Below, one piece after another: positions 31,418 to 48,460 of a stretch of DNA of 64,000 bases. Below the pieces are notes generated by a model that worked only from the letters and a program-made list of their open reading frames with translations, searched no databases and was not told the origin of the DNA. The position numbers and the translations under genes were made by a program. Positions within the stretch are counted from its first letter, which is position 1, and every line of letters starts with the position of its first letter. Source of the stretch: Archaeoglobaceae archaeon. GTDB taxonomy: Archaea > Halobacteriota > Archaeoglobi > Archaeoglobales > Archaeoglobaceae. The stretch spans positions 31,092-95,091 of the forward strand of contig JAVYOO010000005.1 in assembly GCA_038734275.1 (NCBI GenBank), read 5' to 3'.

Positions 31418-31870
31418 TTAAATATCTTGCCCTAACTTAGTAAAGCTTAATAAGTGAAGCGTCAAAAGTTTTTCGGGCTCGTAGCTCAGCGGTAGAGCGC
31501 CGCCTTCGCGAGGCGGAGGCCCCGGGTTCAAATCCCGGCGAGTCCATGTTTTTCTGGGATTAGAGACTTCATAAATACCATCGTTAAGTTCTCGATTTTT
31601 TGAATTGCTTGATTTTCGGTTTGGAGGTTGTGGAATTTTATTCTCTTTGGATATCTCATATGGGTTGGCAACTCGGTTGCCAACTATGTGTATGAAAAAC
31701 CACTCTCTATCACGGTAAATCTCCGCTTCACAACCGATAAGTTCGGAAAATTCCACTGGCAACAGCAAGTAAGGGTATTCAAAGTCCTCTTTGGCTTTCT
31801 TTTTTCGAATAGCTACTTTTCTAACAAGTTCCATAAAGACATTGTTGACAACTTGAGAAAAGACTTCCAA
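31418..31870 (-). CDS. hypothetical small protein (possibly AbrB/SpoVT-like); 3' part runs antisense through tRNA-Ala
   Basis: The ORF is 150 aa. The segment YLLLPVEFSELIGCEAEIYRDREWFFIHIV loosely resembles swapped-hairpin DNA binders. The true 3' end and expression are uncertain. The central 87 bp is duplicated at 45355-45441. Confidence 0.3.
   Translation of the reverse strand: MEVFSQVVNNVFMELVRKVAIRKKKAKEDFEYPYLLLPVEFSELIGCEAEIYRDREWFFIHIVGNRVANPYEISKENKIPQPPNRKSSNSKNRELNDGIYEVSNPRKTWTRRDLNPGPPPREGGALPLSYEPEKLLTLHLLSFTKLGQDI
31475..31546 (+). tRNA. tRNA-Ala: tRNA-Ala (anticodon CGC)
   Basis: 72 nt with acceptor GGGCTCG/CGAGTCC, which contains the G3:U70 Ala identity pair. The anticodon loop is TTCGCGA. 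No CCA is encoded. Confidence 0.92.
31676..31762. repeat. 87-bp perfect inverted repeat, copy 1 (reverse complement of 45355-45441)
   Basis: I verified the reverse complement character by character. Weaker similarity continues about 35 nt beyond one end. Confidence 0.92.
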
Positions 31871-32826: not shown

Positions 32827-33201
32827 TTACTTCTTAATAAGCTCCTCAATAGCCTCTCTGCACGCCGCGACCGCCTGAGCACCGCCTGCAACGAAGATCA
32901 CCCGAATTGCCTCGACGATTTCTTCTCTCGTAGCTCCACGGTTCATCGCCCCTCGCATTGCTGAAGTGACGCATTCCTTGCAATGCCTTTGGGCTCCCAT
33001 TGCCATAACCAGCATGAGCTTGAACTTCGCAGGCAGAGCTCCGTCTTCCTGTATTGCTTTATCGCAGAACTCATAGAACTCAACAGCCTTCGGATCAAGC
33101 TCTTTAACAAGCTTCATAATTCCCGGGGCAAACCCCATCTTCTTCTCTATGCTTTTAACAACTTTTTCGTGCTGAGTCATATAACCACCAATCATAATCA
33201 A
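32827..33201 (-). CDS. carboxymuconolactone decarboxylase (AhpD-like) family protein
   Basis: The helical AhpD-like core contains the HCKECV motif. The start is uncertain (TTG at 33201, ATG at 33195 or 33180). Confidence 0.65.
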   Translation of the reverse strand: MIMIGGYMTQHEKVVKSIEKKMGFAPGIMKLVKELDPKAVEFYEFCDKAIQEDGALPAKFKLMLVMAMGAQRHCKECVTSAMRGAMNRGATREEIVEAIRVIFVAGGAQAVAACREAIEELIKK

Positions 33202-33256
33202 TAATTGTATATATAACCCTATTCCTCCTTTTCAATCAATTCGAAGACCGCACAAT

Positions 33257-33264
33257 TTTTTAAA
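33257..33264 (+). promoter_or_regulatory. TATA-like box (tttttaaa) about 28 nt upstream of the hypF ATG
   Basis: The spacing is consistent with a leaderless hypF mRNA starting near 33288. Confidence 0.4.
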
Positions 33265-33287
33265 GTTTGCAAGCTCAGAATTTGCAA

Positions 33288-35582
33288 ATGCTCAAAGCGA
33301 TCAGAATCAAGCTCATCGGAGTTGTTCAGGGAGTTGGTTTAAGACCATTTGTTTACCGCTTGGCGGTAGCCAAAGCTCTTAATGGCTATGTTCGAAATAT
33401 GGGGGGTAGCGAAGTCGAAATTCTTGTAGAGGGTTCTGATGAAGCCTTAAAATCCTTCATAGATAGACTGCAAAAGGAAAAACCGATTTCCGCAAGGTTC
33501 GAGCAAGTTATTATTGAAGAAGTTGAGCCTTGTGGCTATAAGGATTTCAAAATTCTAAAAAGCGATTCGAAATTTGAGGAAAGAAGCATAATCCCGCCAG
33601 ATTTTGCGATCTGCAAAGACTGTGCTCAAGAAATCTTGAGCTCAGGCAGTAGATTCTATCGCTACCACTGGAACAGCTGTGCTTGGTGCGGTCCGAGATT
33701 TTCCATGCTCTATAGTTTGCCATACGACCGTGAAAACACCGCAATGAACCAATTTCCTCTTTGCGAAGAATGCTCAAGTGATTATGGCAATCCAGGGAAT
33801 TTGAGGAGATTTCATGCTCAGGGAATAAGCTGTCCAAAGTGCGGTCCGAAAACGCTCGTTTACGATTTGAATGGAAAAAGAATGGTTGTGGAGGATGCAG
33901 TTGATTTTGCGGTCGAGAAGCTCCTTGAAGGTAAGATTCTCGCTATAAAGGGAATTGGTGGTTATCACATAGCCTGTCTTGGCTCAGACGACTCCATCGT
34001 CTTGGAGCTGAGGAAGAGAAAAAGAAGGGAGAACAAACCATTTGCCTTAATGGCGAAAGATTATAGTGTGGTAGAGAAAATTGCAGACCCGCCCTCGGGG
34101 GCAAAAGAGCTTTTGGAGTCTCCAGAAAGACCAATAGTTGTGATGCCAAAGAAAGGCTCTTCGGTTTCTGAATTCGTTGCTCCGGGGCTTTCCACAATCG
34201 GAATAATGCTTCCTTACTCAGCATTTCAGATTCTTCTTTTAAGCAAAATTCCAGACGGATTTCTAATAATGACGAGCGGAAATGTTCACGGAAAGCCGAT
34301 GTGCAGAAACCTTGAAGAAGTTTTTTCACAGCTTTCTGGCATTGTTGACTACGTTGTTGAGCATGAAAGGGAAATCGTGCACAGGGTTGATGACAGCGTT
34401 CTGAGATTCACAGATGGTGAGCCTGTTTTCCTGCGAAGAGGCAGGGGCTATGCTCCTGAGTGGATTAAAGTTTGCAGAGATTTGCCCAATGGCATAGCTC
34501 TTGGAGCAGAGCTACAAACCGCTGGAGCAATTTCATTTGATAACAAGGTTGTTTTAACGCAATTCATTGGAGACCTTGATGAAATCGAGAATCTTGAGGC
34601 AATGAAGAGCGAAATAAGCTGGCTTGTTGAGAATTACCGAATAAAGCCCGAATTCATAGCCATTGACATGCATCCACTTTATCACAACAGAAAATTGCTC
34701 AAAGATTTTCCTTCAGCCCCAGTTTTTGAAGTCCAGCACCATCATGCTCACGCAGTGTCTGCAATTGCAGAACTCGGCTTGGAACCAGAAGATAAGGCTT
34801 TAGCGATAACGATCGACGGAACTGGTTATGGCGACGACGGGGCTATATGGGGTGGAGAAGTGCTGATTGCAAACTGGAAAGAATACGAAAGGATTGCAAG
34901 CCTTAAGCCATTCAACCTTCCTGGCGGAGACAGCTCCGCAAAATATCCCGCAAAATCTCTGATTGCCCTAATGAGCTCTTATGGGTTTAAAGAGGATGAA
35001 ATTCTTGAGCTTCTGAATGAAAGAAACCTAATCGATTCTTTGCCCTATGGCTTGAAAGAAGCTGAAATCACATGCATGATTGCAAAGAAAGGAAAAGGAG
35101 TTGCAACTACAAGCTTGGGAAGGATTTTAGATGCCTTTTCAGCACTGCTTGGCATTTGCACAGAAAGAACCTATGAGGGAGAGCCACCGATGAAGCTTGA
35201 AGCCTTGGCAGACTTTGGAAAGGACTTTAAGCTAACTGCGAAGCTTTGCAAAGAAGACAGAATCCTTATAGACGTTAAGAACTTGCTCGAATGGGCAATT
35301 GAAAGCGAAGGTAAAAAAGAGGACCTCGCAAGAACAGTTTTGCAGGGAATAGGGAGGGCACTTGGCTTGACTGCACTCGAGGTTTTCAGGCAAAGGAGTC
35401 TGGAATACGAAAAAGTTATTGTCACTGGTGGTGCGGGTGTGAATACATACCTCGTTAAAGGAATTCGGGAGATTCTCTCCGCAGAAGAAATTGAGGTTTA
35501 TTTGCCCAGAAAAACCCCCCTTGGGGACGGTGGAATCGCTTTGGGGCAAATACTTATAGCTTCAGCCAATTTGATGCTTTAA
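33288..35582 (+). CDS. hypF: [NiFe]-hydrogenase maturation carbamoyltransferase HypF
   Basis: It has an acylphosphatase-like N-terminus (VQGVGLRPFVYRLA). It has two Zn-finger pairs (CKDC...CAWCGPRFS, CEEC...CPKCGPK). YrdC-like and Kae1-like domains follow. The length is about 765 aa. Confidence 0.93.
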   Translation: MLKAIRIKLIGVVQGVGLRPFVYRLAVAKALNGYVRNMGGSEVEILVEGSDEALKSFIDRLQKEKPISARFEQVIIEEVEPCGYKDFKILKSDSKFEERSIIPPDFAICKDCAQEILSSGSRFYRYHWNSCAWCGPRFSMLYSLPYDRENTAMNQFPLCEECSSDYGNPGNLRRFHAQGISCPKCGPKTLVYDLNGKRMVVEDAVDFAVEKLLEGKILAIKGIGGYHIACLGSDDSIVLELRKRKRRENKPFALMAKDYSVVEKIADPPSGAKELLESPERPIVVMPKKGSSVSEFVAPGLSTIGIMLPYSAFQILLLSKIPDGFLIMTSGNVHGKPMCRNLEEVFSQLSGIVDYVVEHEREIVHRVDDSVLRFTDGEPVFLRRGRGYAPEWIKVCRDLPNGIALGAELQTAGAISFDNKVVLTQFIGDLDEIENLEAMKSEISWLVENYRIKPEFIAIDMHPLYHNRKLLKDFPSAPVFEVQHHHAHAVSAIAELGLEPEDKALAITIDGTGYGDDGAIWGGEVLIANWKEYERIASLKPFNLPGGDSSAKYPAKSLIALMSSYGFKEDEILELLNERNLIDSLPYGLKEAEITCMIAKKGKGVATTSLGRILDAFSALLGICTERTYEGEPPMKLEALADFGKDFKLTAKLCKEDRILIDVKNLLEWAIESEGKKEDLARTVLQGIGRALGLTALEVFRQRSLEYEKVIVTGGAGVNTYLVKGIREILSAEEIEVYLPRKTPLGDGGIALGQILIASANLML

Positions 35583-37280
35583 GATTTCATAAACTTTACT
35601 CAGGTCTCTTTTTTCCCTAAGAGCGTTCTTTAAAGCTCTTCTGATTTCATTTTTGTCTCCCTGAATTCTTTCAACACTCAAGACTGTGTAGGGTTTGATA
35701 AAGGCTCCAAATCGTTCTGAAATTTTTCTCTTTATGTCTTCATCGCTAATTGCTCCTTCAACAATCACGATCGGCAATTCATCTCCATCTTCATCTTTAA
35801 TCCCAACAACAACCGCCTTCTTTGTGTCATTAAATTCTATCGCGCTCTCAATTGCCCCGGGACTCAATCTGTATCCTTTAATTCTCAAAACGCTGTCCCT
35901 TCTGCCAAATGAGAAGATGTAGCCGTCATCGTTTATGAGCCCGAGGTTCATCGTGTCGTAGAAGCCATTTTTCAATAAAGCCCTGAATTCACGATCCAGA
36001 GGCATTGCAGGCCAAGGTGCTCTAACAATGAGCCTTTCGATCTTGTTTCTTATCGGAGCCCCTTTCTGATCGATCACATCCAGTAAAAATCCCGGCATAG
36101 CTTTGCCAACGGAACCTAAAGGAGTTTGAGCATTGGAATTCGTTACAAAGCTTCCAAGCTCACCCTGAATAAACGTTACTTTTAGCTGTGCTTCTCCAAA
36201 AATTCTCTGAATTTTGCTTAGGACTTCCGCGTTTAGCATGTCGGGAGTTGAGAATACCGCCTTAAGGCTTAAATCTCTGCTAAAGTCCCTTTCTGAAAGA
36301 ATTCTTAAAATTCCGCCCGCAGTTATGAAAATCGTTGCCTTGTGCTTTTCAATCAATTCAAGATATCGATTCCAATTTGGGTAATCTGGAGCTCCTTCGT
36401 AGCTCAGAATTGTTGAACCAAGCATTAAAGGTGCAAAAATACCGTAAGTGGCTCCAGTGATCCAGCAAGGCCAGATCGTGCAGAAAATGGTGTCGGATGA
36501 GCTAATTCCGAGCATTTTGGCTGTTGAAATCGCCTGAACCAGAAATCCTCCAGCTGAATGAGTTACTGGCTTGAATTCCTCTTCATAGCCAACATGCAAT
36601 CCGAAAAGCGGATCTTGGGAATCAAAGATTGCAGATCTTCCAGAACCTTTGCCAAGAAGCTCTTCGAATGCCAATTCATTGTAAAGCTTCGAGCCGAATC
36701 TGTTATGGACTATGACTTTTGGCTTAAATTTTAGGAAATCCAAAGCCTTCCTTAAGGTTTTTAAAGGCTCTAAGATTTTCTTGTTTCTATAAAATCCATC
36801 TACAGTAAAAACAATTCTCGGTTTTCTTAGGGCAATTCTCTTCGCCACTTCAAGCCATCCAAAACCAGTAAAAACTACCTCGAACGGAGATCCAAGCTTA
36901 ACTCCCGCTAAGATCGTTGCAAACGACTCTATGCATGGGGGAGCATATATCAGGAGCCAATCTCCTGCTTGCAATCCATTATCCTTTAATCCTGAAGCTA
37001 TTCTGCCTGCAAGCTGATCCAATTCCGCATAGCTTATTTTTCTGACTTCTCCAATCTCATTTTCGCTGATTATTGCAGTCTTGTTCCAGTTCTCCGTCTT
37101 GGAATGCTTTTTGATCAAGTTCTCGTATACATTGATCCTACCGCCCAAAAACCACTTGGCACTGCATAGATCCCCCTCTAGAACTCGCTCGAACTTCTTT
37201 TTCCAGATCAGGCTTTTAGCTTCGTTAATCCAAAACTCTTCTAACTCCACTTTCTGAGCAGAGAAAGCATTTATGGACAT
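35562..37280 (-). CDS. acetyl-CoA synthetase-like (AMP-forming ligase superfamily) protein with degenerate nucleotide-binding motifs
   Basis: It is collinear with ACS (KWFLGGRINVYEN..., DPLF..., GRRDSVLRIKGYRLSPGAIE). However, the P-loop position reads LHVGYEEEFKP instead of YTSGSTGKPKG. It lies 15 nt downstream of hypE on the same strand. Confidence 0.75.
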   Translation of the reverse strand: MSINAFSAQKVELEEFWINEAKSLIWKKKFERVLEGDLCSAKWFLGGRINVYENLIKKHSKTENWNKTAIISENEIGEVRKISYAELDQLAGRIASGLKDNGLQAGDWLLIYAPPCIESFATILAGVKLGSPFEVVFTGFGWLEVAKRIALRKPRIVFTVDGFYRNKKILEPLKTLRKALDFLKFKPKVIVHNRFGSKLYNELAFEELLGKGSGRSAIFDSQDPLFGLHVGYEEEFKPVTHSAGGFLVQAISTAKMLGISSSDTIFCTIWPCWITGATYGIFAPLMLGSTILSYEGAPDYPNWNRYLELIEKHKATIFITAGGILRILSERDFSRDLSLKAVFSTPDMLNAEVLSKIQRIFGEAQLKVTFIQGELGSFVTNSNAQTPLGSVGKAMPGFLLDVIDQKGAPIRNKIERLIVRAPWPAMPLDREFRALLKNGFYDTMNLGLINDDGYIFSFGRRDSVLRIKGYRLSPGAIESAIEFNDTKKAVVVGIKDEDGDELPIVIVEGAISDEDIKRKISERFGAFIKPYTVLSVERIQGDKNEIRRALKNALREKRDLSKVYEILKHQIG

Positions 37281-37294
37281 GGATCTTCGAGAGT

Positions 37295-38329
37295 TCAGCA
37301 GATCCTTGGAACAAGCTCTCCTCTCGGGGGCTCGACAATTCTGAAGCCACCTACAGCAGTTTTCATGAGCACATAGCCCTTGTATTTCTCGCTCTTTCGG
37401 ACTTCTCCGATCAAGCGAGCATTCTCAAAGCCTTGCTTTTTTAGAGCCTCAAGAAACTCTTCAGCAACTTCAGAGCTAACAGAGAAAAGTGCAGAACCCT
37501 CGCTTGCTAAGTAGATCGGATCTATGCCAAGCATTTCAGAATATCTTTTGACTGGTTCCTTTATTGGCAGATCGCTGTCGACAACAAGCACAGCTTCAAC
37601 ATTTTTAGCCCAGTCGTTAAGCACGCCTCCAAGTCCGCCCCTTGTAATGTCTCTGCATGCGTTTATGTGCTCAGAGTAAGCGTTAATGACTGGCAGAAGT
37701 GCTGTAAGTGGCTTTGCATCGCTCCTGAGCATTCCGCATTTAAGCTCTTCCACATCGCTGAGACCCATCTGGAGCATCATTATCACCGCTCCGTGATCGC
37801 CTACATAGTCTGTTACGATCAGCTTGTCCCCTTCTTTCGGCAGATCGACAATTGTTCTCTCAGCGATCCCAAGAACCGTGGTTGTAATCACTATTCTGTC
37901 AATTCCCCCTTTTGGCATGACTTTAAAGTCACCACCAACCAGTGCAACACCTTCTTTCTTGAAAACTTCAATCAGCGAATCGACTATGGTCTTTAGATCT
38001 TCAATCGGAAAACCCTCTTCGACTATGATCGAATCAAGCCCCGCTATTGGCTTTGCCCCCATAACAACAACGTCGTTGATCGAGCCTATCGCTGAGAGCA
38101 TTCCTATATTGCCCCCGGGAAAAAATGGGGGGTTTACCGTGTATGAGTCCGTAGAAACAACGATCTTTGAGTTTTTTACAGGAATCACCGCACCGTCATC
38201 GGGAAGATCAATCCCAAGTCCTTCAGGGACCTTCTTTAATCTTTCTGGAACCTTAGAGAACAGAATTTCGTTAAGCAACTCTCCAGTTTCTTCTCCGCCA
38301 GACCCATGGGCTAATTTAACGAATTTCAC
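37295..38329 (-). CDS. hypE: hydrogenase maturation protein HypE
   Basis: It has a PurM-like fold sequence, an N-terminal LAHGSGG motif and the diagnostic C-terminal ...PRIC. Confidence 0.92.
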   Translation of the reverse strand: MKFVKLAHGSGGEETGELLNEILFSKVPERLKKVPEGLGIDLPDDGAVIPVKNSKIVVSTDSYTVNPPFFPGGNIGMLSAIGSINDVVVMGAKPIAGLDSIIVEEGFPIEDLKTIVDSLIEVFKKEGVALVGGDFKVMPKGGIDRIVITTTVLGIAERTIVDLPKEGDKLIVTDYVGDHGAVIMMLQMGLSDVEELKCGMLRSDAKPLTALLPVINAYSEHINACRDITRGGLGGVLNDWAKNVEAVLVVDSDLPIKEPVKRYSEMLGIDPIYLASEGSALFSVSSEVAEEFLEALKKQGFENARLIGEVRKSEKYKGYVLMKTAVGGFRIVEPPRGELVPRIC

Positions 38330-38616
38330 TCTTTCACCTCTTTAGAGAGTTTCAGAATTCTCTCGTAATGCTCAAGCAAATCAGAGCTTTCGCCAGCAGT
38401 CCTTGCTATATCTCTGAGCATTTCCGCAGTTGTGCTTGCATCTTCAAAGCTCAGCTTTGTGATTATGACGCCCGCGTGCACGATCACAAGATCCCCTTTA
38501 TTCAGCTTCTCTTCCGCTATGCCAACGATGACTTTCCTAAGCACTCCGTCACCGTAGTCGATCTCAGCGAATTCGCCGTCGATCTTGCGCACAACCGCAG
38601 GCACTCCCCAGCACAT
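38326..38616 (-). CDS. hypC: hydrogenase assembly chaperone HypC/HupF
   Basis: 96 aa starting MCWGVPA, with the essential Cys2. It overlaps the hypE start by 4 nt. Confidence 0.9.
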   Translation of the reverse strand: MCWGVPAVVRKIDGEFAEIDYGDGVLRKVIVGIAEEKLNKGDLVIVHAGVIITKLSFEDASTTAEMLRDIARTAGESSDLLEHYERILKLSKEVKE

Positions 38617-38620
38617 TTTC

Positions 38621-39832
38621 TCACCTCAGCTCAAGCTCATCAGCAATTCGATCCGCCAAGCCATTTGCCCCAAATCTTGCCCAGATCGCACACGTGCCTT
38701 CCAGAGAGACCATGCAAGGTCCGACAGGCGAAGAGGGCGTGCACTTTTTCATAAAAAGCGGACAGTTAGTTGGCTTTTCTTTGCCTATAACCACTTCAGC
38801 ACATCTACAGCCCTTTGGCAAATCCGCTTGACAGCTTTCAGGAGCAATTTCTGGAATTCCATACTCCCTGAAGGCGTCGAATGAAGCAAAGTGATCTGAA
38901 ATCCTTAAACCGCTTTCTGGCAAAAACCCGATTCCACGCCAGGCGTCTTCAACAACTTTAAAAGCCCTGCAAATCATTTCCTGAGCCTTCAAATCACCTT
39001 CCCAGCTAACCGCTCTTGTGTATTCTATCGAAACCTTTGCTTCTCCTCTTACAAGCTGTTTTAAAATCTCTGCTATAGCAATGAGCACGTCTATCGGCTC
39101 AAAGCCCGTGACGACTACCGGGATCTTGTGCCTGTCTGCAACAGGCTTCCAGGACTTTGCTCCAATGATCGTTGAAACATGCCCGGGAGCTATAATTCCC
39201 TTGACTGAATTTTCTTCCTCTTTTTCAAGTATATCGACTGTTGCAATCATTGCGGGTGGTGTTAACTTTACCAAGCTCATCAGCTTCAGATTTTCAGGCA
39301 AAAGATTGCTTATGAGTGTCTGTGCATAGCCAGAGGCGACGGTTTCGAAGCCAATTCCCAAAAATACAGCCTCTTTACCATGAGCTCTTGCGTCAAGTAT
39401 TGCATCTCCTATTCCAGTTACGATCTTTATTTCAGCACCCAAAGCCTTCGCTTCTGCTAAGGAACTTGCACCATTTAAAGGCTTAAGGCTCGGAAGTCTA
39501 TAAACGTCGCCGTAGGTGTAAATTACAATCCCTTCAAAGCCTAATCGGATTGCATTTTCTATATAGTAAGATGGAGTAACGCAAACTGGACATCCAGGAC
39601 CAGCAACAAGCTCCAAGCCTTCAGGCATCAGGCTTCGCAGCCCATAGTGCGTTATCGTCCACTCATGCGTTCCGCAGAAGTCCATGATCTTAAAGCTCCC
39701 GAAATCTTTCTGCAATTTGCTGTAAAACTTGTCAATATAACCCACGAGAGTTTTGGCTAAGTTCGCATTGTTTCTGAAGATTTTTTCAAGACTTTTTATT
39801 GTTTGAGAGGCTTCTTCACTCATTTTTCTCAA
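38621..39832 (-). CDS. hypD: hydrogenase maturation protein HypD
   Basis: It has the signatures FCGTHEW and GPGCPVCVTP and a C-terminal Cys cluster. It lies immediately upstream of hypC. Confidence 0.92.
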   Translation of the reverse strand: MRKMSEEASQTIKSLEKIFRNNANLAKTLVGYIDKFYSKLQKDFGSFKIMDFCGTHEWTITHYGLRSLMPEGLELVAGPGCPVCVTPSYYIENAIRLGFEGIVIYTYGDVYRLPSLKPLNGASSLAEAKALGAEIKIVTGIGDAILDARAHGKEAVFLGIGFETVASGYAQTLISNLLPENLKLMSLVKLTPPAMIATVDILEKEEENSVKGIIAPGHVSTIIGAKSWKPVADRHKIPVVVTGFEPIDVLIAIAEILKQLVRGEAKVSIEYTRAVSWEGDLKAQEMICRAFKVVEDAWRGIGFLPESGLRISDHFASFDAFREYGIPEIAPESCQADLPKGCRCAEVVIGKEKPTNCPLFMKKCTPSSPVGPCMVSLEGTCAIWARFGANGLADRIADELELR

Positions 39833-39866
39833 ACAGAATTTGCAACCTATTTAAAAACTTTTCAGC

Positions 39867-40901
39867 TCAATCCTCATCAGAACTCGGAAACCTCTTTGCT
39901 GGAGATGGCTTTAAAATTTTGCTTCCATTTGATGTTATCAGCATATTGGTGAGCGCACTCAGAGAGCAAAGGGTTCCTCTGCCCACAATACCTTCTCCAG
40001 GGATCTTTGCAACTATAAAACCCTCGGAGGTAACTTCAATCTCGGTTCCAAGCTCCGAAAGGCGGTGAAGCACGATGTTGCCCATAGCCCCCATTGACTT
40101 CTCCATCCAGCAGTGCTTCATCGGGCAAAGGTTGCAATACGCTTTGAACCTCCTTGCACTCTCCTGAGACACTAAGCCCGCAGCAATCTCAGCTTTTGTG
40201 GTTGAATAGGCTATGCAACATCCAAGAACTCGATCCGCAAGCACCTTTTCTCCTTTAAGAATGCTTGCCCTAACTGCGCCCCCTTTTGCCTCGTATCTAT
40301 TCTCAACGCCTTCTTCAAACTTGATTTTTCCAGTATTCCGAGCATTCTTTAGCTTTTCCTTCACGAATTGCGTAAGCTGATCGTTTTTGATAATTGCCTT
40401 CACAATTGCACATGTCGGGCAATAAGAGACTGAAGACTGGGCAATCAGCCTATTGTCTTTATCGTAAAGCCTTGCCACAACGCCAACCCCTTCCCTTCTT
40501 ATAAGTGTTCTTCCTCCAAGCTCATTAACGAACTGTAGTGCGATGACTGATGGCGTTACAACCCTCCCATAGCCATAAAGTTCTGCAATCGCTTTAATCT
40601 CATCTTCATCGCTCAAAGCCTGCCTCAACTTGTCTTCAAACCTCTCGGGGATAAGCTTTGCATTTATTTCCGCCTCGAGGATCGCTGGAGACCAGACGAT
40701 GTCGAAGCCCTCTCCAATGACGTTGCCCTCATTGTCTTTTATCAAAGCCAAGATCCCATCGGGTTTTTCATATGCACAAACGACTCCATTCTCTTCTGTG
40801 ATAGCCTCAAGCGTTCCGTGGCAGATTCCACATGCCCCTTCGATCTCTCTTAGCTTTTCTGTCTGCTTTCTCACTCTTTTTCTAAAGTCCTCAGAGCTCA
40901 T
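39867..40901 (-). CDS. hypothetical Cys-rich protein with about 4 internal repeats, upstream of hypD
   Basis: The ATG at 40901 (MSSEDF...) is preferred over the TTG at 40970. The protein contains CGICHG, SYCPTCAIV, GCCIAYS and CNLCPMKHC. A unit of beta-hairpin-like segment followed by a Cys-containing helix recurs. I did not recognise a family. Confidence 0.5.
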   Translation of the reverse strand: MSSEDFRKRVRKQTEKLREIEGACGICHGTLEAITEENGVVCAYEKPDGILALIKDNEGNVIGEGFDIVWSPAILEAEINAKLIPERFEDKLRQALSDEDEIKAIAELYGYGRVVTPSVIALQFVNELGGRTLIRREGVGVVARLYDKDNRLIAQSSVSYCPTCAIVKAIIKNDQLTQFVKEKLKNARNTGKIKFEEGVENRYEAKGGAVRASILKGEKVLADRVLGCCIAYSTTKAEIAAGLVSQESARRFKAYCNLCPMKHCWMEKSMGAMGNIVLHRLSELGTEIEVTSEGFIVAKIPGEGIVGRGTLCSLSALTNMLITSNGSKILKPSPAKRFPSSDED

Positions 40902-40975
40902 CTTTTTCAATTCCTTCCAAGCCAAGATAAGTCTTTCGAGGTCTTGGAAAAGAAATAAAACAATCTTCAATGGAT

Positions 40976-40990
40976 AAAAATATATTTAAA
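40976..40990 (+). promoter_or_regulatory. strong TATA box (aaaaatatatttaaa) about 25 nt upstream of the ATG at 41012
   Basis: This is the best TATA match in the divergent intergenic region. It argues for the 41012 (or 41003) start rather than 40970. Confidence 0.5.
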
Positions 40991-41011
40991 TCAACCCCAC
41001 GAATGTTGAGC

Positions 41012-41950
41012 ATGAGTTACCTTAGCAAGGAGGAGCTGATTAAGCAATACGGAAGCTTACCATGGGTCTCACCTTATTCAAGAGTTGTCGCAATGACTGA
41101 CGGCGAGCTTGTGGAATTGCACGAGTTTCATGCTCGCGAAAGATGCTACGGAGGAGCCTCTTGGGAAGTTCTGCACTATCCGAGGGTTAGCGATCTTGTG
41201 TTGTGGGCAAGAAGAGAGGGTGCAAGAAACATTTTTGTTTTAAAGCCCGGAAAGACTGAGTTGAAGCTAATTCCCGGCGTAGCGGGAGCGGGAATTGAGG
41301 AAGTAAAGCTGACGGACAGAATCGAGATAACCTATGCTGGCTTGGCAGGCGGTGGAATTGCCGCAACAGTTTGCAGAGGAATGGCTGAAGATGTTGACGG
41401 CATTGAAATTGTGGAGCTTGGAGGCGGAGCAAAGCTTGGAAAAGCAAAGATCAGGCTTAAGAAGTATTCAAAGGTTGTAATAGGCGTTGACGACACTGAC
41501 AACAAAGAGAAGGGGGCAACATGGGCTCTTGTTAACGAGATCGCTTACAAGCTTGAAAAAGCGGGCTATGGCTACTATCTGCTTCATACGATCACACAGC
41601 TATACACCAAGAATCCCGCAAAGACCACAAATTGCGTTTCAATCTCAGTGAGCTTTGCAACTGAAAAGCCAGAAGAGCTTGTTGAGGCATTCAGAAAGGA
41701 GCTCGAGAAAACAACGCTCAGTGATAACACTGCAATGGTTGTTTACAGAAAAATTTCAATTCCTGAGAAGCTTAGAAAATATGGAGAGAAGGTGAAATCT
41801 CAGCTTGTTGAGCTTGAAGAGGCTAAGATAATTGCAGAAGAACTCGGAATAGAGACGATAGTAATAACTGGTGAGAGAGGTCTCATAGGCGCTGTAGCGG
41901 CTTTGGCATTCTCGAATTCGCCAGAAGAAGCTGTAAAGATCTATGCTTGA
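41012..41950 (+). CDS. hypothetical protein with TiaS-N-terminal-like (DDTD) domain in its C-terminal half
   Basis: The segment VVIGVDDTDNKEKGATWAL...LHTITQLYTKNPAKTTNCVSISV resembles the GIDDTDS...RLNPNIPWKTRGN core of tRNA(Ile2) agmatidine synthetase as I recall it. The gene is coupled to the next gene by an 8-nt overlap. Confidence 0.45.
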   Translation: MSYLSKEELIKQYGSLPWVSPYSRVVAMTDGELVELHEFHARERCYGGASWEVLHYPRVSDLVLWARREGARNIFVLKPGKTELKLIPGVAGAGIEEVKLTDRIEITYAGLAGGGIAATVCRGMAEDVDGIEIVELGGGAKLGKAKIRLKKYSKVVIGVDDTDNKEKGATWALVNEIAYKLEKAGYGYYLLHTITQLYTKNPAKTTNCVSISVSFATEKPEELVEAFRKELEKTTLSDNTAMVVYRKISIPEKLRKYGEKVKSQLVELEEAKIIAEELGIETIVITGERGLIGAVAALAFSNSPEEAVKIYA

Positions 41951-42980
41951 TTACAGAACAAAGCTTGAATTGCTCGTTCTTGGCGTAAGAAGCTCTTTAT
42001 CGCCTTTGCGCCGTGGAGGAGGAGGACCAGTAGGTGGAATTGGGTTCGCAGTTAGGGATTCAATAGTCTCCGCTCCGGCGGTGCAATCTTTTGCAAAGGA
42101 GTCTCCCTATGTGCTTTTAGAAAAGGACAATGGCGTATGGCTTTACAAAGGGCACGAGAAGATAGGCAAAGTCAAGCTTCCGACAGCGAAATACTATGAG
42201 CACATGATAAAGGGCATCTCCGCTGGCAGATATGTCGCCCTTGACGGAGTTAACGCCCTCGTCACCGCGGTGACAAGAAAGTGCGTGCATGTCGATGCAG
42301 GCAAAAAATGCGTTTTTTGCGTGATTGAAGAAAATGTTCCAGAGAAGCAGATCCTGGATAAGGATCCAGAAGATATTGCTGAAGCTGTGAAGGTTGCCTA
42401 TTTGGAAGACAAATCGAGACACTTGACTTTAACAACGGGAACGCCAAATCTTGTGGACAAAGGAGCGATCAGGTATTCAGAAGTTGCTAAGAAAATTCGT
42501 GAAGAAGTTGAAATTCCAATCCATGCACAGATTGAGCCAATAAACAGGGAATACTTGGAGCTTCTTTACTCTTCAGGAGTTGACACCATTGGGATTCACG
42601 TCGAGACTTTTGACGAAAGAATACGAAATGCGGTAGTGCCCGGAAAGCCCGCAATAGAGGAATACCTTAAAGCATGGGAAAATGCGGTTGAAGTTTTTGG
42701 AGAGTGGAACGTCTCATCTTGGATCCTTGTAGGCTTGGGGGAAAGCGTTGAAAGCGTTGTTAAAGGTTTCAGAGCCATGGCTGAGCGGGGAGTTTATCCC
42801 TACATCGCCCCGTATCGTCCGCCACCCAGCTCAGCGGATCGCACAGATCTAAGGCATGTGCTCAAAGTATACGAAAGCCTTGCAGAGCTTAAGGGAGAAT
42901 ACAAAATCAGGTTAAAGTTCAAAGCGGGTTGCCCGAGATGCACAGGTTGCTCAGCCATATTAGAGCTTCTCAGTCATTAA
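41943..42980 (+). CDS. radical-SAM-like TIM-barrel protein with non-canonical CX8CX2C motif
   Basis: The motif is C114-x8-C123-x2-C126 (CVHVDAGKKCVFC, nt 42282-42320). Radical-SAM-core-like strands are present (LTLTTGTP, GVDTIGIHVETFDE). There is an extra C-terminal CPRCTGC. Confidence 0.55.
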   Translation: MLDYRTKLELLVLGVRSSLSPLRRGGGGPVGGIGFAVRDSIVSAPAVQSFAKESPYVLLEKDNGVWLYKGHEKIGKVKLPTAKYYEHMIKGISAGRYVALDGVNALVTAVTRKCVHVDAGKKCVFCVIEENVPEKQILDKDPEDIAEAVKVAYLEDKSRHLTLTTGTPNLVDKGAIRYSEVAKKIREEVEIPIHAQIEPINREYLELLYSSGVDTIGIHVETFDERIRNAVVPGKPAIEEYLKAWENAVEVFGEWNVSSWILVGLGESVESVVKGFRAMAERGVYPYIAPYRPPPSSADRTDLRHVLKVYESLAELKGEYKIRLKFKAGCPRCTGCSAILELLSH

Positions 42981-43625
42981 GCAGATCTCTTTAACTTTTT
43001 CGACAACTTTTATTGCGTCGAGCTTTTTGAGGTTGACTTTATTCTCATTTATGGTGTTCAAAAGCTTTTCTGCCTCACTCTTGGTGATAAAACCCTCTCG
43101 AATTGCCTTTTCAATCAGAGTTTCGTAGCTTCGCCTTGAGTAATGCAGTCTTTTTGCAATCTCGATCAATCTGTCTCTCTTCTCTACCTCAATCAAGCCC
43201 TTTGTAACTAAAGCAGAAAGAGTTGCCCTTATGTTCACCAAAGGCTCCGAGAGTGCTTCGAAAGTTTCTGGATTGACAACAACCGCTACCTCATCGTCAG
43301 ATTCAAGCTCTCCATTTTTGAACATTCTGAAGATCTCACCAACGCCAATCATTCCAAGTTCGCAGAGTTCCGCAGCTCTTAGAGCCCCAATGCTTCCACC
43401 GCCAACAACGATCACTCCCTCTCTGAGCACTTCCATGATCTCCCTTGGAGAGATCGCTACATCCTGCAAAAAAACGCCGTCTATGATCCCCAGGATCTTG
43501 GCACCATCTTTGAGAGCTTTTAAAGCATCTCCACGCTTTATAGGCGGCCTATATTCCGCTTGAGCAAAGATCTTTCTTGCCTCTTCATGGCTAAGGCTTG
43601 GTCCAGTGAAGATCACAGCTTTCAT
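42960..43625 (-). CDS. tfuA: TfuA-like protein (YcaO partner)
   Basis: It has the motifs IFTGPSL...YRPPIKRGD...IIDGVF...GGGSIGALRAAEL...GMIGVGEIF...SDDEVAV. It overlaps the ycaO stop by 4 nt. Confidence 0.85.
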   Translation of the reverse strand: MKAVIFTGPSLSHEEARKIFAQAEYRPPIKRGDALKALKDGAKILGIIDGVFLQDVAISPREIMEVLREGVIVVGGGSIGALRAAELCELGMIGVGEIFRMFKNGELESDDEVAVVVNPETFEALSEPLVNIRATLSALVTKGLIEVEKRDRLIEIAKRLHYSRRSYETLIEKAIREGFITKSEAEKLLNTINENKVNLKKLDAIKVVEKVKEICLMTEKL

Positions 43626-44827
43626 TTCTTCAGAAAGCTAAGAGCTCTCTCACCTACCCTTGTTGGATCCATTCCAAAAACTTCCAACCCTGGCACTATT
43701 ACGCGGACTGTAGGAACTCCGAGCTCTTCTCTCGTCAGATCAACCACTATAGCCCTTTCAAATCCTTTTTTCTTTAGCAAGCTCAACGTGATCTCTATGT
43801 CCTCTCTTAGATCCTCCGTGGAGAACTTTGGAAGCTTGCTGAGCTCGACTTCTTCGCTTCTTTCAAACCAGTGCCTGTTTATCCTTTTCATTCTCTCATA
43901 ACCCGCTCTCCTCATTACTTCAGCCTTTATTGTGTCCTCTCTTGCTCCCTGAATCTGAACAAGCCTGCTCTGGGCAACCTCCAGAATTGCCCTTATGCAT
44001 GCAACTTCAGGCTCAGAATGAGCACCAAAGCCAATCGTTAGCAATGCGGGATCTTTTAAGGTTACGTCGTCGGAAACCGCAGCAACAACAGGAATTTTAA
44101 GATCACTTGTGATGTCTCTCAAGAAAATCTCAACTCCCGCTTTTTTAAATTTTTCAATTAATTCTTGGATCAATGGATCGTCAGTTTCGATCACTTTACC
44201 GCCATTTCTGCAGAGCTCCGCAATGCTCCAGGCATCTCTTTCAACGACTTCCATCAAGCCGTGCAGAATTGCTTCTTCAATAGTATTTCCAGAAGCGAGA
44301 CCATTCGTCGTGGTTCTGAAAAGATGAAAATCGCCAATTGGAGAGTAGGGATGAAATACTGCGCTAACTGGTACAAGAATCTCCTCGTTCTGAAGCAAAT
44401 CATAGCCCCATACCCATCTAAGCACCACATCTTCGTTGAAAGGTGTATCTTTAGGAAGGATCAGCGATTCGGGATCAATTGCATTGTATTCTTCTGAGAT
44501 CTGCCTGTAATTTCCTTTGATTGTCTTCTCATTCCTGAACTCCGCAGAGTATCTCTCGAAGCTCTCCATTATTGCGGAGATCTTTGCCAGAGTCTCTGTC
44601 ATCCCTTTGCCCGAATAAACCGACACAGCTCCTTCAGCTGCAGTCGGCCTTATCGCTGAAAAGATTGGGATTCCTATTCTGTCCAGCCCGGTTATATTTG
44701 CAAGCCTTGTGATTCCAGCGATTTTTATCTTTGGCTCAATCCAGCTTAGAGTTTCTTCAGGCTTTCTCGCTCTATGTGTGCCGTCCTTGAACGCTTTTTT
44801 GACACTTCTGAGCTCAATCTTAGCCAT
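43622..44827 (-). CDS. ycaO: YcaO-domain protein (TfuA-associated, thioamidation-type)
   Basis: 401 aa with ESFERYSAEF and GFGAHSEPEVACIRAILEVAQSR motifs. The layout is that of the methanogenesis-marker-1-type YcaO. Confidence 0.87.
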   Translation of the reverse strand: MAKIELRSVKKAFKDGTHRARKPEETLSWIEPKIKIAGITRLANITGLDRIGIPIFSAIRPTAAEGAVSVYSGKGMTETLAKISAIMESFERYSAEFRNEKTIKGNYRQISEEYNAIDPESLILPKDTPFNEDVVLRWVWGYDLLQNEEILVPVSAVFHPYSPIGDFHLFRTTTNGLASGNTIEEAILHGLMEVVERDAWSIAELCRNGGKVIETDDPLIQELIEKFKKAGVEIFLRDITSDLKIPVVAAVSDDVTLKDPALLTIGFGAHSEPEVACIRAILEVAQSRLVQIQGAREDTIKAEVMRRAGYERMKRINRHWFERSEEVELSKLPKFSTEDLREDIEITLSLLKKKGFERAIVVDLTREELGVPTVRVIVPGLEVFGMDPTRVGERALSFLKK

Positions 44828-44915
44828 CGCTTTTGATTTTAGATCTGGGTTAAAAAGATTAATTGAAAGTTTCTGACAGAAAAATTAACAAAGCTCAACC
44901 CAGATACCAAAATGG

Positions 44916-45218
44916 GTGATTTTATTGATCACTGTGGAACTATTAGAGATTAAAGGAAAGAGAGTTCTCGGATTAAAAGTCGATCTGCCAAAAGCCCCGT
45001 TGCTTTTGATCATCTGCGGAGAAATCGTGATTGGTTGCGGATACATAAGCGTTGAAGCGATGGAAAAGCTCGGAAATTGCGCCTGTGTTGTTAGAGGCGT
45101 TAGAAGCTTCGAGGACATGCTAAATGCAGAGATCTCGGAATTGACTTCAAAAGCTGAAAAGCTTGGAGCAAGAAAAGGCATGAGAGTTCGCGAGCTTTTG
45201 GAAAAGATTGAAGTTTGA
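44916..45218 (+). CDS. DUF1805-like small protein
   Basis: 100 aa with a GTG start. The pattern LLLIICGEIVIGCGYISVEAMEKLGNCACVVRGVRSFEDML is as I recall for DUF1805/YunC-like proteins. Confidence 0.5.
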   Translation: MILLITVELLEIKGKRVLGLKVDLPKAPLLLIICGEIVIGCGYISVEAMEKLGNCACVVRGVRSFEDMLNAEISELTSKAEKLGARKGMRVRELLEKIEV

Positions 45219-45354
45219 TTAATAAAAATATTTGCTAAGAGGTGACAGCTGGTCGAATATCTACTAAACAAGCGTCCTTTTATAGCTCAGATTTGACTTT
45301 GCAACACTCAAAACTTTAAATTTGTTGCAAAGGCTTTGAATACCTTACTTGCGT

Positions 45355-45441
45355 TTGCCAGTGGAATTTTCCGAACTTATCGGTTGTGAAGCGGAGATTT
45401 ACCGTGATAGAGAGTGGTTTTTCATACACATAGTTGGCAAC
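45355..45441. repeat. 87-bp perfect inverted repeat, copy 2 (fragment of the 31418-31870 ORF) on the CRISPR trailer flank
   Basis: It is the exact reverse complement of 31676-31762. The upstream homology is broken by indels, so this copy looks like a gene remnant. Confidence 0.92.
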
Positions 45442-45500
45442 TTAGGAGTATTCTGAATGAAAGATAAAACTCCAAGGCCTTCAAAACGAGAATCTACTGT

Positions 45501-48460
45501 CTTTCAATCCCATTTTGGTCTGATTTCAACATCTTTGCAATGAGCTTTGAGAGCAACAAAAAATACCTTTCAATCCCATTTTGGTCTGATTTCAACAGGC
45601 ATTCGTCCTGGTTAGCTTTTTTTATCCTACACAGCTTTCAATCCCATTTTGGTCTGATTTCAACCTTTTTTTATGACTGGTGCAGAAGAAGAAAAAAAAG
45701 CTTTCAATCCCATTTTGGTCTGATTTCAACTGGCTCGTATACGTAATCGAACCAGTTTTTCGGATTTTCCTTTCAATCCCATTTTGGTCTGATTTCAACA
45801 AATTGTGCTTAACGATGGTCATTATGTTAGAGTAACTTTCAATCCCATTTTGGTCTGATTTCAACTGTAAAAGCAGTTTCGAACACGAAGTCACACAATA
45901 CACTTTCAATCCCATTTTGGTCTGATTTCAACCGAATATCTTGCAAACGAAAAATCTAACTTTACGAAGCTTTCAATCCCATTTTGGTCTGATTTCAACG
46001 GTATAGAGAATTTAGCAGCCCCCCCTGAAATTGCAATCTTTCAATCCCATTTTGGTCTGATTTCAACGGCTTTGGCAGGGACTCCCATCGGTAGCATTGG
46101 CGGCTTTCAATCCCATTTTGGTCTGATTTCAACTGTTTAATCGTTTGTTCTACAAGAGCTATTATCTCTTCCTTTCAATCCCATTTTGGTCTGATTTCAA
46201 CTAAACACTGGTGGGAGCAGGTATTGTTTTGTTTCGTTCTTTCAATCCCATTTTGGTCTGATTTCAACCAACCTGCAAGGTGCCTCCAGGGCCTTTTTTA
46301 AAGCTTTCAATCCCATTTTGGTCTGATTTCAACTTGGGATAAGGGTTGAGCTGAGAAGGAGCAAAACCTTCCGCCTTTCAATCCCATTTTGGTCTGATTT
46401 CAACGAGATATCTTGGTTGGTGCAGTATGTTTGCTTATAGCTTTCAATCCCATTTTGGTCTGATTTCAACATGAAACTGCTGAATAGAAGTAATCCGCAA
46501 CTTCAATTGAAAGCTTTCAATCCCATTTTGGTCTGATTTCAACTTTCAACGAGAAGCTAGTGGTACTAGCATGGCATGTCCACATGCAGCTGGTGTCTTT
46601 CAATCCCATTTTGGTCTGATTTCAACCAATTTGACGCCCGGTGAGCTGAGCGGGGCGATTGCCTTTCAATCCCATTTTGGTCTGATTTCAACACTATTCC
46701 CTGCTTTACACGCCACAGGCTTTGAAGACCTTTCAATCCCATTTTGGTCTGATTTCAACTGGCGATATCTTGTGGTTAACAACATACGTTAAAGCACTTT
46801 CAATCCCATTTTGGTCTGATTTCAACGAATGTTACTGCCAGCGTCTTACTTTGTCCTGAATTACTTTCAATCCCATTTTGGTCTGATTTCAACTTTTGTG
46901 CAGTTCTCCCTACCCCAAAAAAGGGGTAGAATCTTTCAATCCCATTTTGGTCTGATTTCAACTTCGAATACATCGCAATTTTGGACAGTGGCGAGGTTTA
47001 TGACTTTCAATCCCATTTTGGTCTGATTTCAACCTAAAAGTTGCATATCCTCGAGGGCAAGTTGTGACTGTCTTTCAATCCCATTTTGGTCTGATTTCAA
47101 CATATAACGCTTGGGGCGAAGGAAGATATACTGTGGACTTTCAATCCCATTTTGGTCTGATTTCAACAAAGAGGGACATTTGTGAATAGGAATCTCGTAT
47201 TTATATCTTTCAATCCCATTTTGGTCTGATTTCAACGAGAATTGGCAAGCTCATCCTCTACAGAAACAAAATCCCTTTCAATCCCATTTTGGTCTGATTT
47301 CAACCTGGATAGAAGTCCACCCGATCTTTTATTTTACGTGGCTTTCAATCCCATTTTGGTCTGATTTCAACAGAAGCTGATAAAGGATAGCTTCGAGGTC
47401 AAGATTCCCTTTCAATCCCATTTTGGTCTGATTTCAACTCTTATTTTAAATTAGCTTTATGGAAGTTGAGATAAACTTTCAATCCCATTTTGGTCTGATT
47501 TCAACTTACAGTAACAGGAAAAGCAAAAATAATGTTGGTGGACTTTCAATCCCATTTTGGTCTGATTTCAACCTCTCATAAGCCCTTAGAAAGCCATCTT
47601 GTCCGCAGACCTTTCAATCCCATTTTGGTCTGATTTCAACACGAGTTTGGAGACATTGAAGGCTATGAATACTTTGCCTTTCAATCCCATTTTGGTCTGA
47701 TTTCAACCTGCCTACATAGCTTACAAACCGCCTTATTGGTCTACCTTTCAATCCCATTTTGGTCTGATTTCAACCCTTCCAGTTGCCAAATACAACTTGG
47801 TCGCCGAGTTTATTTCTTTCAATCCCATTTTGGTCTGATTTCAACAAATATATCTCAACGGGCAGAAGATTGGCAAAACTGGCTTTCAATCCCATTTTGG
47901 TCTGATTTCAACTTTCAACGAGGAATATGTTGGGCAAGCAAACTCATGTCTCTTTTCTTTCAATCCCATTTTGGTCTGATTTCAACTCCCCTTCTTCGTT
48001 ATAATACCAAAGCATAGTGAAATCTTTCAATCCCATTTTGGTCTGATTTCAACAAGATTCTGCCTACATAGCTTACAAACCGCCTTATTGGTCTACTTTC
48101 AATCCCATTTTGGTCTGATTTCAACGTGGCTCATTAAACTCTCCGCAAACTCCGCAAACAACCTTTCAATCCCATTTTGGTCTGATTTCAACAAGTGGCT
48201 GTGCTTCTTACCTTTAATGCTTTTAAAAACTTTCAATCCCATTTTGGTCTGATTTCAACTCAAAAATTTCGTGAAGTTTATCAGATCGTGGAGAGTCTTT
48301 CAATCCCATTTTGGTCTGATTTCAACCTAATTATTTGGAGGATGCTATTGTAAGTGTGAGTGGCTTTCAATCCCATTTTGGTCTGATTTCAACTTTGCTC
48401 GTCAAAAGTCTTTCTTAAGTAGCTTCTTTGCTTTCAATCCCATTTTGGTCTGATTTCAAC
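45501..48460 (-). CRISPR. CRISPR array: 44 x 30-nt repeat CTTTCAATCCCATTTTGGTCTGATTTCAAC (plus strand), 43 spacers of 36-53 nt (mode 37)
   Basis: I located the repeats one by one and noticed no variant repeat. The reverse complement GTTGAAATCAGACCAAAATGGGATTGAAAG ends in the ATTGAAAG 8-nt crRNA handle, so transcription is on the minus strand from the 48.5-kb side. Confidence 0.97.

Follow-up and report, generated by a model that had tools for sequence, protein, structure and literature searches.

Every methyl- and alkyl-coenzyme M reductase receives its electrons from coenzyme B, and the late steps of coenzyme B synthesis, attributed to R. H. White, reportedly comprise the decarboxylation of 2-oxosuberate, formation of the thiol, ATP-dependent coupling to threonine and a phosphorylation. 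To our knowledge, no genes have been assigned to these late steps since an outline of the pathway appeared in the 1990s. The described systems closest to the locus reported here are the kinase TiaS, which beyond its TCKD and FLD domains carries the OB-fold and zinc-ribbon domains that hold the tRNA, and radical S-adenosylmethionine (SAM) enzymes with auxiliary clusters, such as LipA, in which the auxiliary site is an N-terminal CX4CX5C, and BioB, in which it is a [2Fe-2S] site. TiaS has been described as a dual-specificity kinase that acts on RNA and on protein (PMC11938285), XcbA as a [2Fe-2S] thioaldehyde reductase making coenzyme M in bacteria (PMC9457059), and a paper of 2025 states that the coenzyme B pathway “is still unknown” and that COG1900 proteins are maybe involved (PMC12068725). 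Here, we analyzed a 64,000-nt stretch of DNA from an Archaeoglobaceae archaeon (assembly GCA_038734275.1, contig JAVYOO010000005.1, positions 31,092 to 95,091 of the forward strand; hereafter the window), with the focus on two overlapping genes, mmp11, which encodes methanogenesis marker protein 11 (Mmp11, protein 1), and a gene for a variant radical SAM enzyme (protein 2). Based on gene context and fold, we propose that the pair encodes conserved enzymes of thiol-cofactor biosynthesis, most probably of late coenzyme B steps from 2-oxosuberate, and assign this reading a probability of about 0.5.

The two genes lie in the window as follows:

41012 to 41950, plus strand: mmp11 (methanogenesis marker protein 11), 312 amino acids (aa) from the methionine at 41012; the open reading frame (ORF) opens at 40970 (40970 to 41950, 326 aa).

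41943 to 42980, plus strand: variant radical SAM gene, 345 aa, with its start codon within the last codons of mmp11.

The original prediction, made from the letters of the window, had noted an overlap of 8 nt between the two genes, and this was confirmed by the coordinates (40970 to 41950 and 41943 to 42980, overlap ATGCTTGA); the two genes are translationally coupled in this genome. It had also preferred 41012 (M15 of the ORF) as the start of mmp11, in agreement with the homologues, which begin there in the alignment, and with a TATA-like A/T-rich box at 40977-40990, approximately 25 nt upstream of this start. All of the motifs that it quoted were recovered, namely DDTD, which begins at residue 174 in the numbering of the 326-aa ORF, QLYTKNPAKTTNC, LTLTTGTP, GIHVETFDE and CPRCTGC. 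The two-gene observation is not a chance pattern, because both proteins pass curated family cut-offs, their models reach mean predicted local distance difference test (pLDDT) values of 93 to 95, and all six cysteines of protein 2 are kept without exception across 23 homologues. The genome of the window (1.73 Mb, 99% complete) carries mcrA, and its nearest named relatives are Archaeoglobales metagenome-assembled genomes (MAGs) and ‘Candidatus Methanoglobus’.

Protein 1 matches the family TIGR03280 with 338.1 bits against a cut-off of 255.8 over profile positions 1-291 of 292, the same result being obtained in the genome search. The Pfam search identified PF22641 (TiaS_TCKD, 68.5 bits) and PF08489 (FLD, 30.4 bits), residues 170-265, and the protein ends after the FLD; in this architecture, the TiaS-type kinase domain (TCKD) and the FLD are preceded by ~150 aa that form a family-specific N-terminal domain. 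In an AlphaFold (AF2) model built from 18 homologues (mean pLDDT 93), the C-terminal half superposes on TiaS (3amt, 5xob and 4rvz) with root-mean-square deviations of 1.7 to 2.0 Å over ~150 residues (Foldseek E 7.5e-9), while a fold search with the full-length model gave no convincing match in the PDB for the N-terminal ~150 residues. When Mmp11 was aligned with the full-length, separate TiaS encoded elsewhere in the same genome, its DDTD corresponded to D8-D11 and its invariant T170 (312-aa numbering) to Thr18, which Terasaka and colleagues reportedly found in 2011 to be the autophosphorylated residue of TiaS, and a GRGxIGA motif was common to both proteins. The score of Mmp11 against the TiaS equivalog NF040849 was nevertheless 41.5 bits versus a cut-off of 600, covering only profile positions 2-151 of 422. 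Mmp11 is thus predicted to work like the TiaS kinase domain but is not a TiaS, because the tRNA-binding parts are missing and its score stays that far below the cut-off; the original prediction of a TiaS-kinase-like protein lacking the rest of TiaS is supported by both Pfam domains, by the equivalog score and by the superposition. Because the TCKD/FLD fold and the TiaS motifs are kept, its chemistry is likely an ATP-dependent phosphoryl transfer to oxygen, which would activate this oxygen for substitution.

TIGR03280, which we take to have been originally defined as a methanogen-only family, extends beyond methanogens, with above-cut-off members in mcrA-less Geoglobus, Ferroglobus, Mnemosynella and Hydrothermarchaeum and homologues of 47 to 52% identity in Actinomycetota bins. 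The marker has been listed as ‘m17, DUF1743’, a predicted ATPase of indeterminate function (Adam et al. 2022; PMC9635834 supplement). The statement of the original prediction that the locus resembles one with no assigned function agrees with the literature searched, which contained no functional study of Mmp11, DUF1743, DUF7714, MSMEG_0568 or TIGR04043.

Many radical SAM enzymes modify RNA, and Mmp11 could be an RNA-modifying kinase like TiaS, with the radical SAM enzyme modifying the same tRNA or rRNA nucleotide. The only characterized relative of the C-terminal half of Mmp11 is indeed TiaS, a dual RNA/protein kinase (PMC11938285), and both the catalytic DDTD and the Thr18 equivalent are conserved. 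We consider this explanation very improbable, given that Mmp11 is without the TiaS domains beyond TCKD/FLD and scores 41.5 rather than 600 bits, that no RNA-binding domain was detected in it by the Pfam search, that a separate full-length TiaS is present in the genome, and that the conserved neighbors of mmp11 are metabolic enzymes and not translation genes.

Protein 2 matches the radical SAM domain PF04055 (64.6 bits against a gathering score of 29.5, residues 122-273) and NF045502 ‘variant_rSAM’ (142.1 bits against a cut-off of 125), and matches TIGR04043 (MSMEG_0568) over its full length with 221.7 bits, below the cut-off of 303.7. It contains exactly six cysteines (114, 123, 126, 330, 333 and 336), which are arranged as CX8CX2C and CX2CX2C and are all invariant in the 23 homologues. 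The first set (C114-x8-C123-x2-C126) departs from the canonical CX3CX2C of the radical SAM superfamily. Within the family, clade A has CX8CX2C or CX7CX2C and clade B has the canonical CX3CX2C, with the C-terminal CxxCxxC common to both. Because the first cysteine aligns between the two clades, CX8CX2C is, as judged from the alignment, the canonical motif with a five-residue insertion. The original claim of a radical SAM enzyme with an atypical CX8CX2C and an extra C-terminal cysteine triad was therefore upheld by PF04055 and the family alignment.

In the AF2 model of protein 2 (pLDDT 94.7), the radical SAM core is a partial triosephosphate isomerase (TIM) barrel, with template-modeling (TM) scores of ~0.5 and E values of 4.5e-9 to 6e-8 against the PDB. 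The best PDB folds were LipA (5exj), HydE (3ciw), PylB (3t7v) and BioB (8vcw), and the best PDB sequence matches fell in the same lipoyl synthase/HydE/PylB/biotin synthase group. The second invariant cysteine set suggests an auxiliary Fe-S cluster by analogy with LipA and BioB, and because the closest folds are those of LipA, HydE, PylB and BioB, a predicted second cluster together with carbon-sulfur chemistry is plausible. An identity as lipoyl or biotin synthase was set aside, as only the fold is common (LipS2 43 versus 270, lipA 39 versus 310) and protein 2 scores far below the LipA, LipS2 and BioB cut-offs.

Elsewhere in the genome of the window (G000, contig C2, 175688-176551; locus L125, 7080-8217, minus strand) is a second radical SAM gene of this family, a long-branch paralogue that likewise has CX8CX2C. 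It lies in an operon of genes for an MtrH-like protein, the corrinoid activator RACo, the radical SAM paralogue and an NMT1-like protein, and occurs only in those species of the genus that bear methyl-coenzyme M reductase (MCR). This paralogue is split by a frameshift near residue 93-100 in this genome and intact in genome G129 of the same genus, and the split copy is either a pseudogene or an assembly error.

To describe the conservation of the pair, 100 Mmp11 loci were assembled, 20 from a phylum-wide sample and 80 named loci, and all ORFs in them were clustered and the clusters named. The radical SAM gene adjoins mmp11 in 33 of the 100 loci by clustering, and in three more by tblastn. The order mmp11 followed by the radical SAM gene was found in Archaeoglobaceae, Methanodesulfokora, Hydrothermarchaeum and Actinomycetota bins, and the reverse order in Mnemosynella, BMS3Abin16 and one Methanocellales MAG; on the radical SAM tree, each of the two deep clades includes genes adjacent to mmp11. 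The actinobacterial contig that carries the pair also carries genes for sigma-70, DnaK and GrpE close by and is truly bacterial. The linkage of mmp11 and the radical SAM gene is therefore real and old, and the original view of the two genes as a conserved pair stands, with 33 to 36 of 100 loci, both clades and both gene orders. For the korarchaeal pair of Candidatus Methanodesulfokora washburnensis (locus L036), the identity to the pair of the window is 74% for mmp11 and 65% for the radical SAM gene. Since this pair, with ycaO-tfuA 1.3 kb downstream, nests within the Archaeoglobaceae clade, a joint transfer of the four genes between Archaeoglobi and Korarchaeia is suggested.

Part of the evidence that points to coenzyme B comes from the other genes in these loci. 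Genes of the AksA/HacA/HacB/AksF type, which serve 2-oxoacid elongation in coenzyme B synthesis, were present in 39 of the 100 Mmp11 loci, in at least five different layouts, and a gene for a thiamine-dependent enzyme, which was IOR-alpha-like, acetolactate-synthase-like (ALS-like) or, in Geoglobus, ComDE-like, in 29; altogether, 72 loci contained at least one Aks-type, thiamine-dependent or radical SAM gene. One of the layouts is a co-directional series MMP11>rSAM>IORa>AksA>HacA>HacB>DUF7714>AksF (locus L021, rSAM denoting radical SAM). Other layouts are AksA>Mmp4>HacA>HacB>ALS-like>MMP11>GMC-like in Methanomethylicia, and, in both Methanobacterium and Methanosphaera, HacA>HacB>AksF>aminotransferase>RibH>MMP11; Methanofastidiosum has MMP11>AksA>ALS-like, and in Methanocella the Aks genes adjoin MMP11>IORa. 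In the Methanobacterium locus, HacA_Meth scored 595.9 against a cut-off of 550 with LEU2 below its cut-off, and a neighboring AksF2_Meth scored 530 against ~272 for leuB; by these scores, the HacA and AksF neighbors of Mmp11 can be assigned to the coenzyme B type. Large subunits of the IPMI/homoaconitase type were present in two copies in nearly all of 61 Archaeoglobaceae, regardless of MCR or Mmp11, and their copy number, taken as a proxy for an additional Aks set, therefore did not discriminate.

Genes of sulfur metabolism recur in the same neighborhoods. DUF7714, which weakly matches the XcbA family in NCBIfam, was found in eight Mmp11 loci. Away from Mmp11, the radical SAM gene overlaps a gene for a COG1900 protein with CBS domains, of the aldehyde-to-thiol L-ASST type, in the ANME-1-like family f11 and in family f8 (families of the phylum sample are numbered here), and ThiI is encoded near the radical SAM gene in four other loci. 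A class-V aminotransferase gene of cysteine-desulfurase type lies directly upstream of the pair in Mnemosynella, and a thioredoxin reductase gene beside it in Geoglobus and Ferroglobus (divergent upstream in Geoglobus). In two Geoglobus loci (L008, 11628-14775; L039, 12638-15785), genes for cysteate-synthase-like, fused sulfopyruvate-decarboxylase-like (ComDE) and NMT1-like proteins directly follow mmp11 and the radical SAM gene, which hints at coenzyme M-type thiol synthesis in an iron-reducing, mcrA-less non-methanogen.

The archaeon of the window, which bears MCR, needs coenzyme B (7-mercaptoheptanoyl-threonine phosphate). We favor the late coenzyme B steps because the enzymes that recur beside the Aks genes match the missing steps well; they are a thiamine-dependent enzyme, the radical SAM enzyme, either an XcbA-like protein or one of COG1900, and an ATP enzyme of the kinase type. 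Under this proposal, Mmp11 would transfer phosphate from ATP to an oxygen in a small-molecule intermediate, which would either activate 7-mercaptoheptanoate at its carboxylate, so that an amide with threonine can form, or phosphorylate the threonine hydroxyl. The radical SAM enzyme, with its putative auxiliary Fe-S cluster, would take part in the carbon-sulfur chemistry of thiol formation. The two proteins would catalyze separate steps rather than form an obligate complex, because each lacks the other in some lineages. A bolder version is offered tentatively, as a possibility on the unlikely side. In it, Mmp11 would be the coupling ligase or the product kinase, the radical SAM enzyme would form the C-S bond of the 7-mercaptoheptanoyl moiety, perhaps acting on a thiazolidine or a thioaldehyde by analogy with HydE and XcbA chemistry, and the two would complete the coenzyme B pathway together with a thiamine-dependent 2-oxosuberate decarboxylase. 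Coenzyme B-like thiols would then also be made by Geoglobus and Ferroglobus, which have no MCR, and by some Actinomycetota, where they would serve other redox enzymes.

The distribution of both families was determined in the phylum sample of 301 genomes, in which Mmp11 (above the family cut-off) was found in 149 genomes, mcrA (E ≤ 1e-10) in 165 and the radical SAM family (E ≤ 1e-30) in 200. The radical SAM family was present in every mcrA-bearing family and in at least as many genomes, including 38/38 genomes of the ANME-1-like f11 and 5/5 of f8, and also f30 and f32. No sampled genome from the non-MCR families f9, f19, f20 and f23, which we take to be haloarchaeal, yielded it, and it occurred in 12 of 46 Archaeoglobaceae. 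In the genus of the window, five mcrA-bearing genomes (that of the window, G000, with G129, G190, G200 and G285) have both Mmp11 and the radical SAM gene, and neither was found in the six mcrA-less congeners sampled. Each protein thus occurs without the other in some lineages, and they are therefore frequent but not obligate partners, in keeping with two steps of a single pathway for which some lineages use alternative enzymes.

Several observations weigh against an assignment to coenzyme B. Mmp11 was not found in the sampled mcrA-bearing genomes of f8, f11, f30 and f32, families that must have coenzyme B, and outside the phylum no clear orthologue of the radical SAM gene was found in the tested Mmp11-bearing genomes of Methanomethylicia and Methanofastidiosum. 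By tblastn, neither DUF7714, ComDE nor an Mmp11-type IOR-alpha-like protein was found in the genome of the window, the one 28%-identical match to the IOR-alpha-like protein being probably a true IorA; nor was Mmp16/ComF found there above its cut-off, with only a COG1900 L-ASST-type homologue below it, which is present everywhere (in this genome at contig C10, 49742-50617, plus relatives). Published labelling work is said to put the sulfur on an aldehyde, with no obvious need for radical chemistry. The pair also occurs in MCR-less Geoglobus, Ferroglobus, Mnemosynella and Hydrothermarchaeum, and in Actinomycetota, in which coenzyme B is not known, the two genes stand by themselves as a unit surrounded by housekeeping genes; these bacterial occurrences are a real difficulty. 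Finally, all of the support comes from gene context and fold. MCR-less carriers may still use such thiols; in Mnemosynella, a thiol:fumarate reductase and Hdr-like complexes have been proposed (Adam et al.).

The same occurrences in MCR-less archaea and among the sigma-70, DnaK and GrpE genes of Actinomycetota would be accounted for if the pair made or matured another sulfur-containing small molecule, for instance a homocysteine-related, biotin- or lipoate-like or Nit1C-type product, or an Fe-S or sulfur-trafficking intermediate, and if the linkage to Aks genes reflected common precursors or regulation. This explanation is also favored by the nearest bacterial relatives of protein 2, MSMEG_0568 of Nit1C, which are paired with an ATP-dependent AIR-synthase-like protein and in one case fused to it, by neighbors such as COG1900 (homocysteine type), ThiI and thioredoxin reductase, and by the label ‘biotin synthase-related’ that sources give to the radical SAM protein. 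It leaves unexplained, however, why Mmp11 lies between HacB/AksF-type and thiamine-dependent genes in at least five orders and why the radical SAM family is nearly confined to mcrA-bearing families in the phylum sample, and f9, f19, f20, f23 and most Archaeoglobaceae, in which this family was not found, would be expected to need homocysteine, biotin and lipoate too. We regard a product other than coenzyme B as unlikely.

Convergent with the pair in the window lie two genes of MCR maturation:

42960 to 43625, minus strand: tfuA, the partner in McrA glycine thioamidation (NF033432, 270.4 against a cut-off of 235.2; PF07812, 151.6 bits).

43622 to 44827, minus strand: ycaO, methanogenesis marker 1, McrA glycine thioamidation (TIGR03266, 533.3 against a cut-off of 365).

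The original prediction also gave a 21-nt overlap between the 3′ ends of tfuA and the radical SAM gene, and the coordinates bear this out; tfuA is a convergent neighbor outside the conserved pair. The ycaO-tfuA genes adjoin the pair in MCR-bearing Archaeoglobales and Methanodesulfokora, and, independently, 14 other Halobacteriota loci (L016/L017 and L091-L105) have the order ycaO-tfuA-hycI-mmp11. From the proximity in the window, the original prediction tied the pair to YcaO/TfuA and read the locus as one of protein, peptide or RNA modification, in which case the pair would mature MCR together with YcaO-TfuA, by delivering sulfur for thioglycine or by another McrA modification such as didehydroaspartate. 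The tracking of mcrA by the radical SAM family in the phylum would agree with this, as would a review stating that the enzymes of several McrA modifications were not known as of 2020 (PMC7581889).

This tie did not hold in general: the ycaO link was found in 22 of the 100 loci and in two lineages, as compared with 72 loci for Aks, thiamine-dependent or radical SAM genes, and the conserved context found most widely is that of small-molecule cofactor biosynthesis, not of protein, peptide or RNA modification. Neither mcrA nor YcaO was found in the Geoglobus and Ferroglobus genomes that have the pair, and Actinomycetota carry it too. Furthermore, ANME-1 MCR presumably has thioglycine, and Mmp11 was not found in the ANME-1-like f11. 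As for didehydroaspartate, Mmp11 is, we assume, near-universal in classical methanogens. This modification is absent from the MCR of Methanothermobacter wolfeii (PMC7581889). Synthesis of didehydroaspartate by the pair was set aside, as the modification is sporadic and the pair occurs without MCR. Maturation of MCR by the pair is thus improbable, and the neighborhood with ycaO-tfuA is inferred to reflect a lineage-specific clustering of MCR-support genes.

Upstream of the pair, a further feature was read from the sequence:

40902 to 41011, no strand assigned: probable divergent promoter region between the Cys-rich gene and hypDCE operon (minus strand) and mmp11 with the radical SAM gene (plus strand).

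A promoter thus probably lies between mmp11 and the divergent gene for a Cys-rich protein of 344 to 367 aa (39867-40970, minus strand), which stands ahead of hypD-hypC-hypE. This protein has no match in Pfam or NCBIfam, and its gene keeps this position throughout the MCR-bearing Archaeoglobales loci, six in all (L027-L032). A 99-nt inverted repeat with 98% complementary arms (31676-31774 and 45343-45441) flanks a 13.6-kb segment in which mmp11, the radical SAM gene and tfuA-ycaO lie together with the Cys-rich gene, an acs-like/hypEDC operon and a gene for a DUF1805 protein, and the entire block could be inverted through the repeat arms. A large CRISPR array (45501-48460) starts just past the right arm. 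DNA synteny between positions 33000-47000 of the window and five MCR-less congeners yielded matches only to CRISPR repeats and one short hypD stretch, and a clean insertion or deletion of the four-gene block was not demonstrable from this comparison.

If the pair and its recurrent neighbors are the late coenzyme B genes, the pathway would be directly testable in genetically tractable methanogens, and heterologous expression of MCR would come nearer. Methanogen-type thiol cofactors would then also be expected in iron-reducing Archaeoglobi and some bacteria, and a TiaS-type kinase domain would have been recruited from RNA modification to small-molecule chemistry.

Compared with the known systems, Mmp11 keeps the GxDDTD, the Thr18-aligned threonine, the KT motif and the GRGxIGA of TiaS (3amt, 3amu, 4rvz, 5xob; Pyrococcus 3u02), but differs in that it is without the tRNA-binding domains, has its own ~150-aa N-terminal domain and is encoded in a metabolic gene context. 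Protein 2 has the radical SAM core fold in common with LipA (5exj), BioB (8vcw, 1r30), HydE (3ciw) and PylB (3t7v), whereas its own CX8CX2C (CX3CX2C in clade B), its C-terminal CX2CX2C and an extra N-terminal beta domain set it apart from LipA and BioB. The nearest named family is MSMEG_0568 (TIGR04043), from the Nit1C cluster of bacteria, whose Streptomyces, Sporichthyaceae and JGI matches show 31 to 34% identity and which is also paired with an ATP-dependent oxygen-activating enzyme and in one match fused to it; there, however, the partner is AIR-synthase-like instead of Mmp11, and protein 2 stays below the family cut-off. The COG1900 L-ASST, Mmp16/ComF and Xanthobacter XcbA enzymes, characterized for coenzyme M and homocysteine rather than coenzyme B (PMC12068725, PMC9457059), have no sequence relationship to either protein of the pair, but have gene neighborhoods in common with it (COG1900 in f11 and f8, XcbA-like DUF7714), and the proposed pathway would follow the same logic as these coenzyme B/M thiol enzymes, from 2-oxoacid to aldehyde to thiol.

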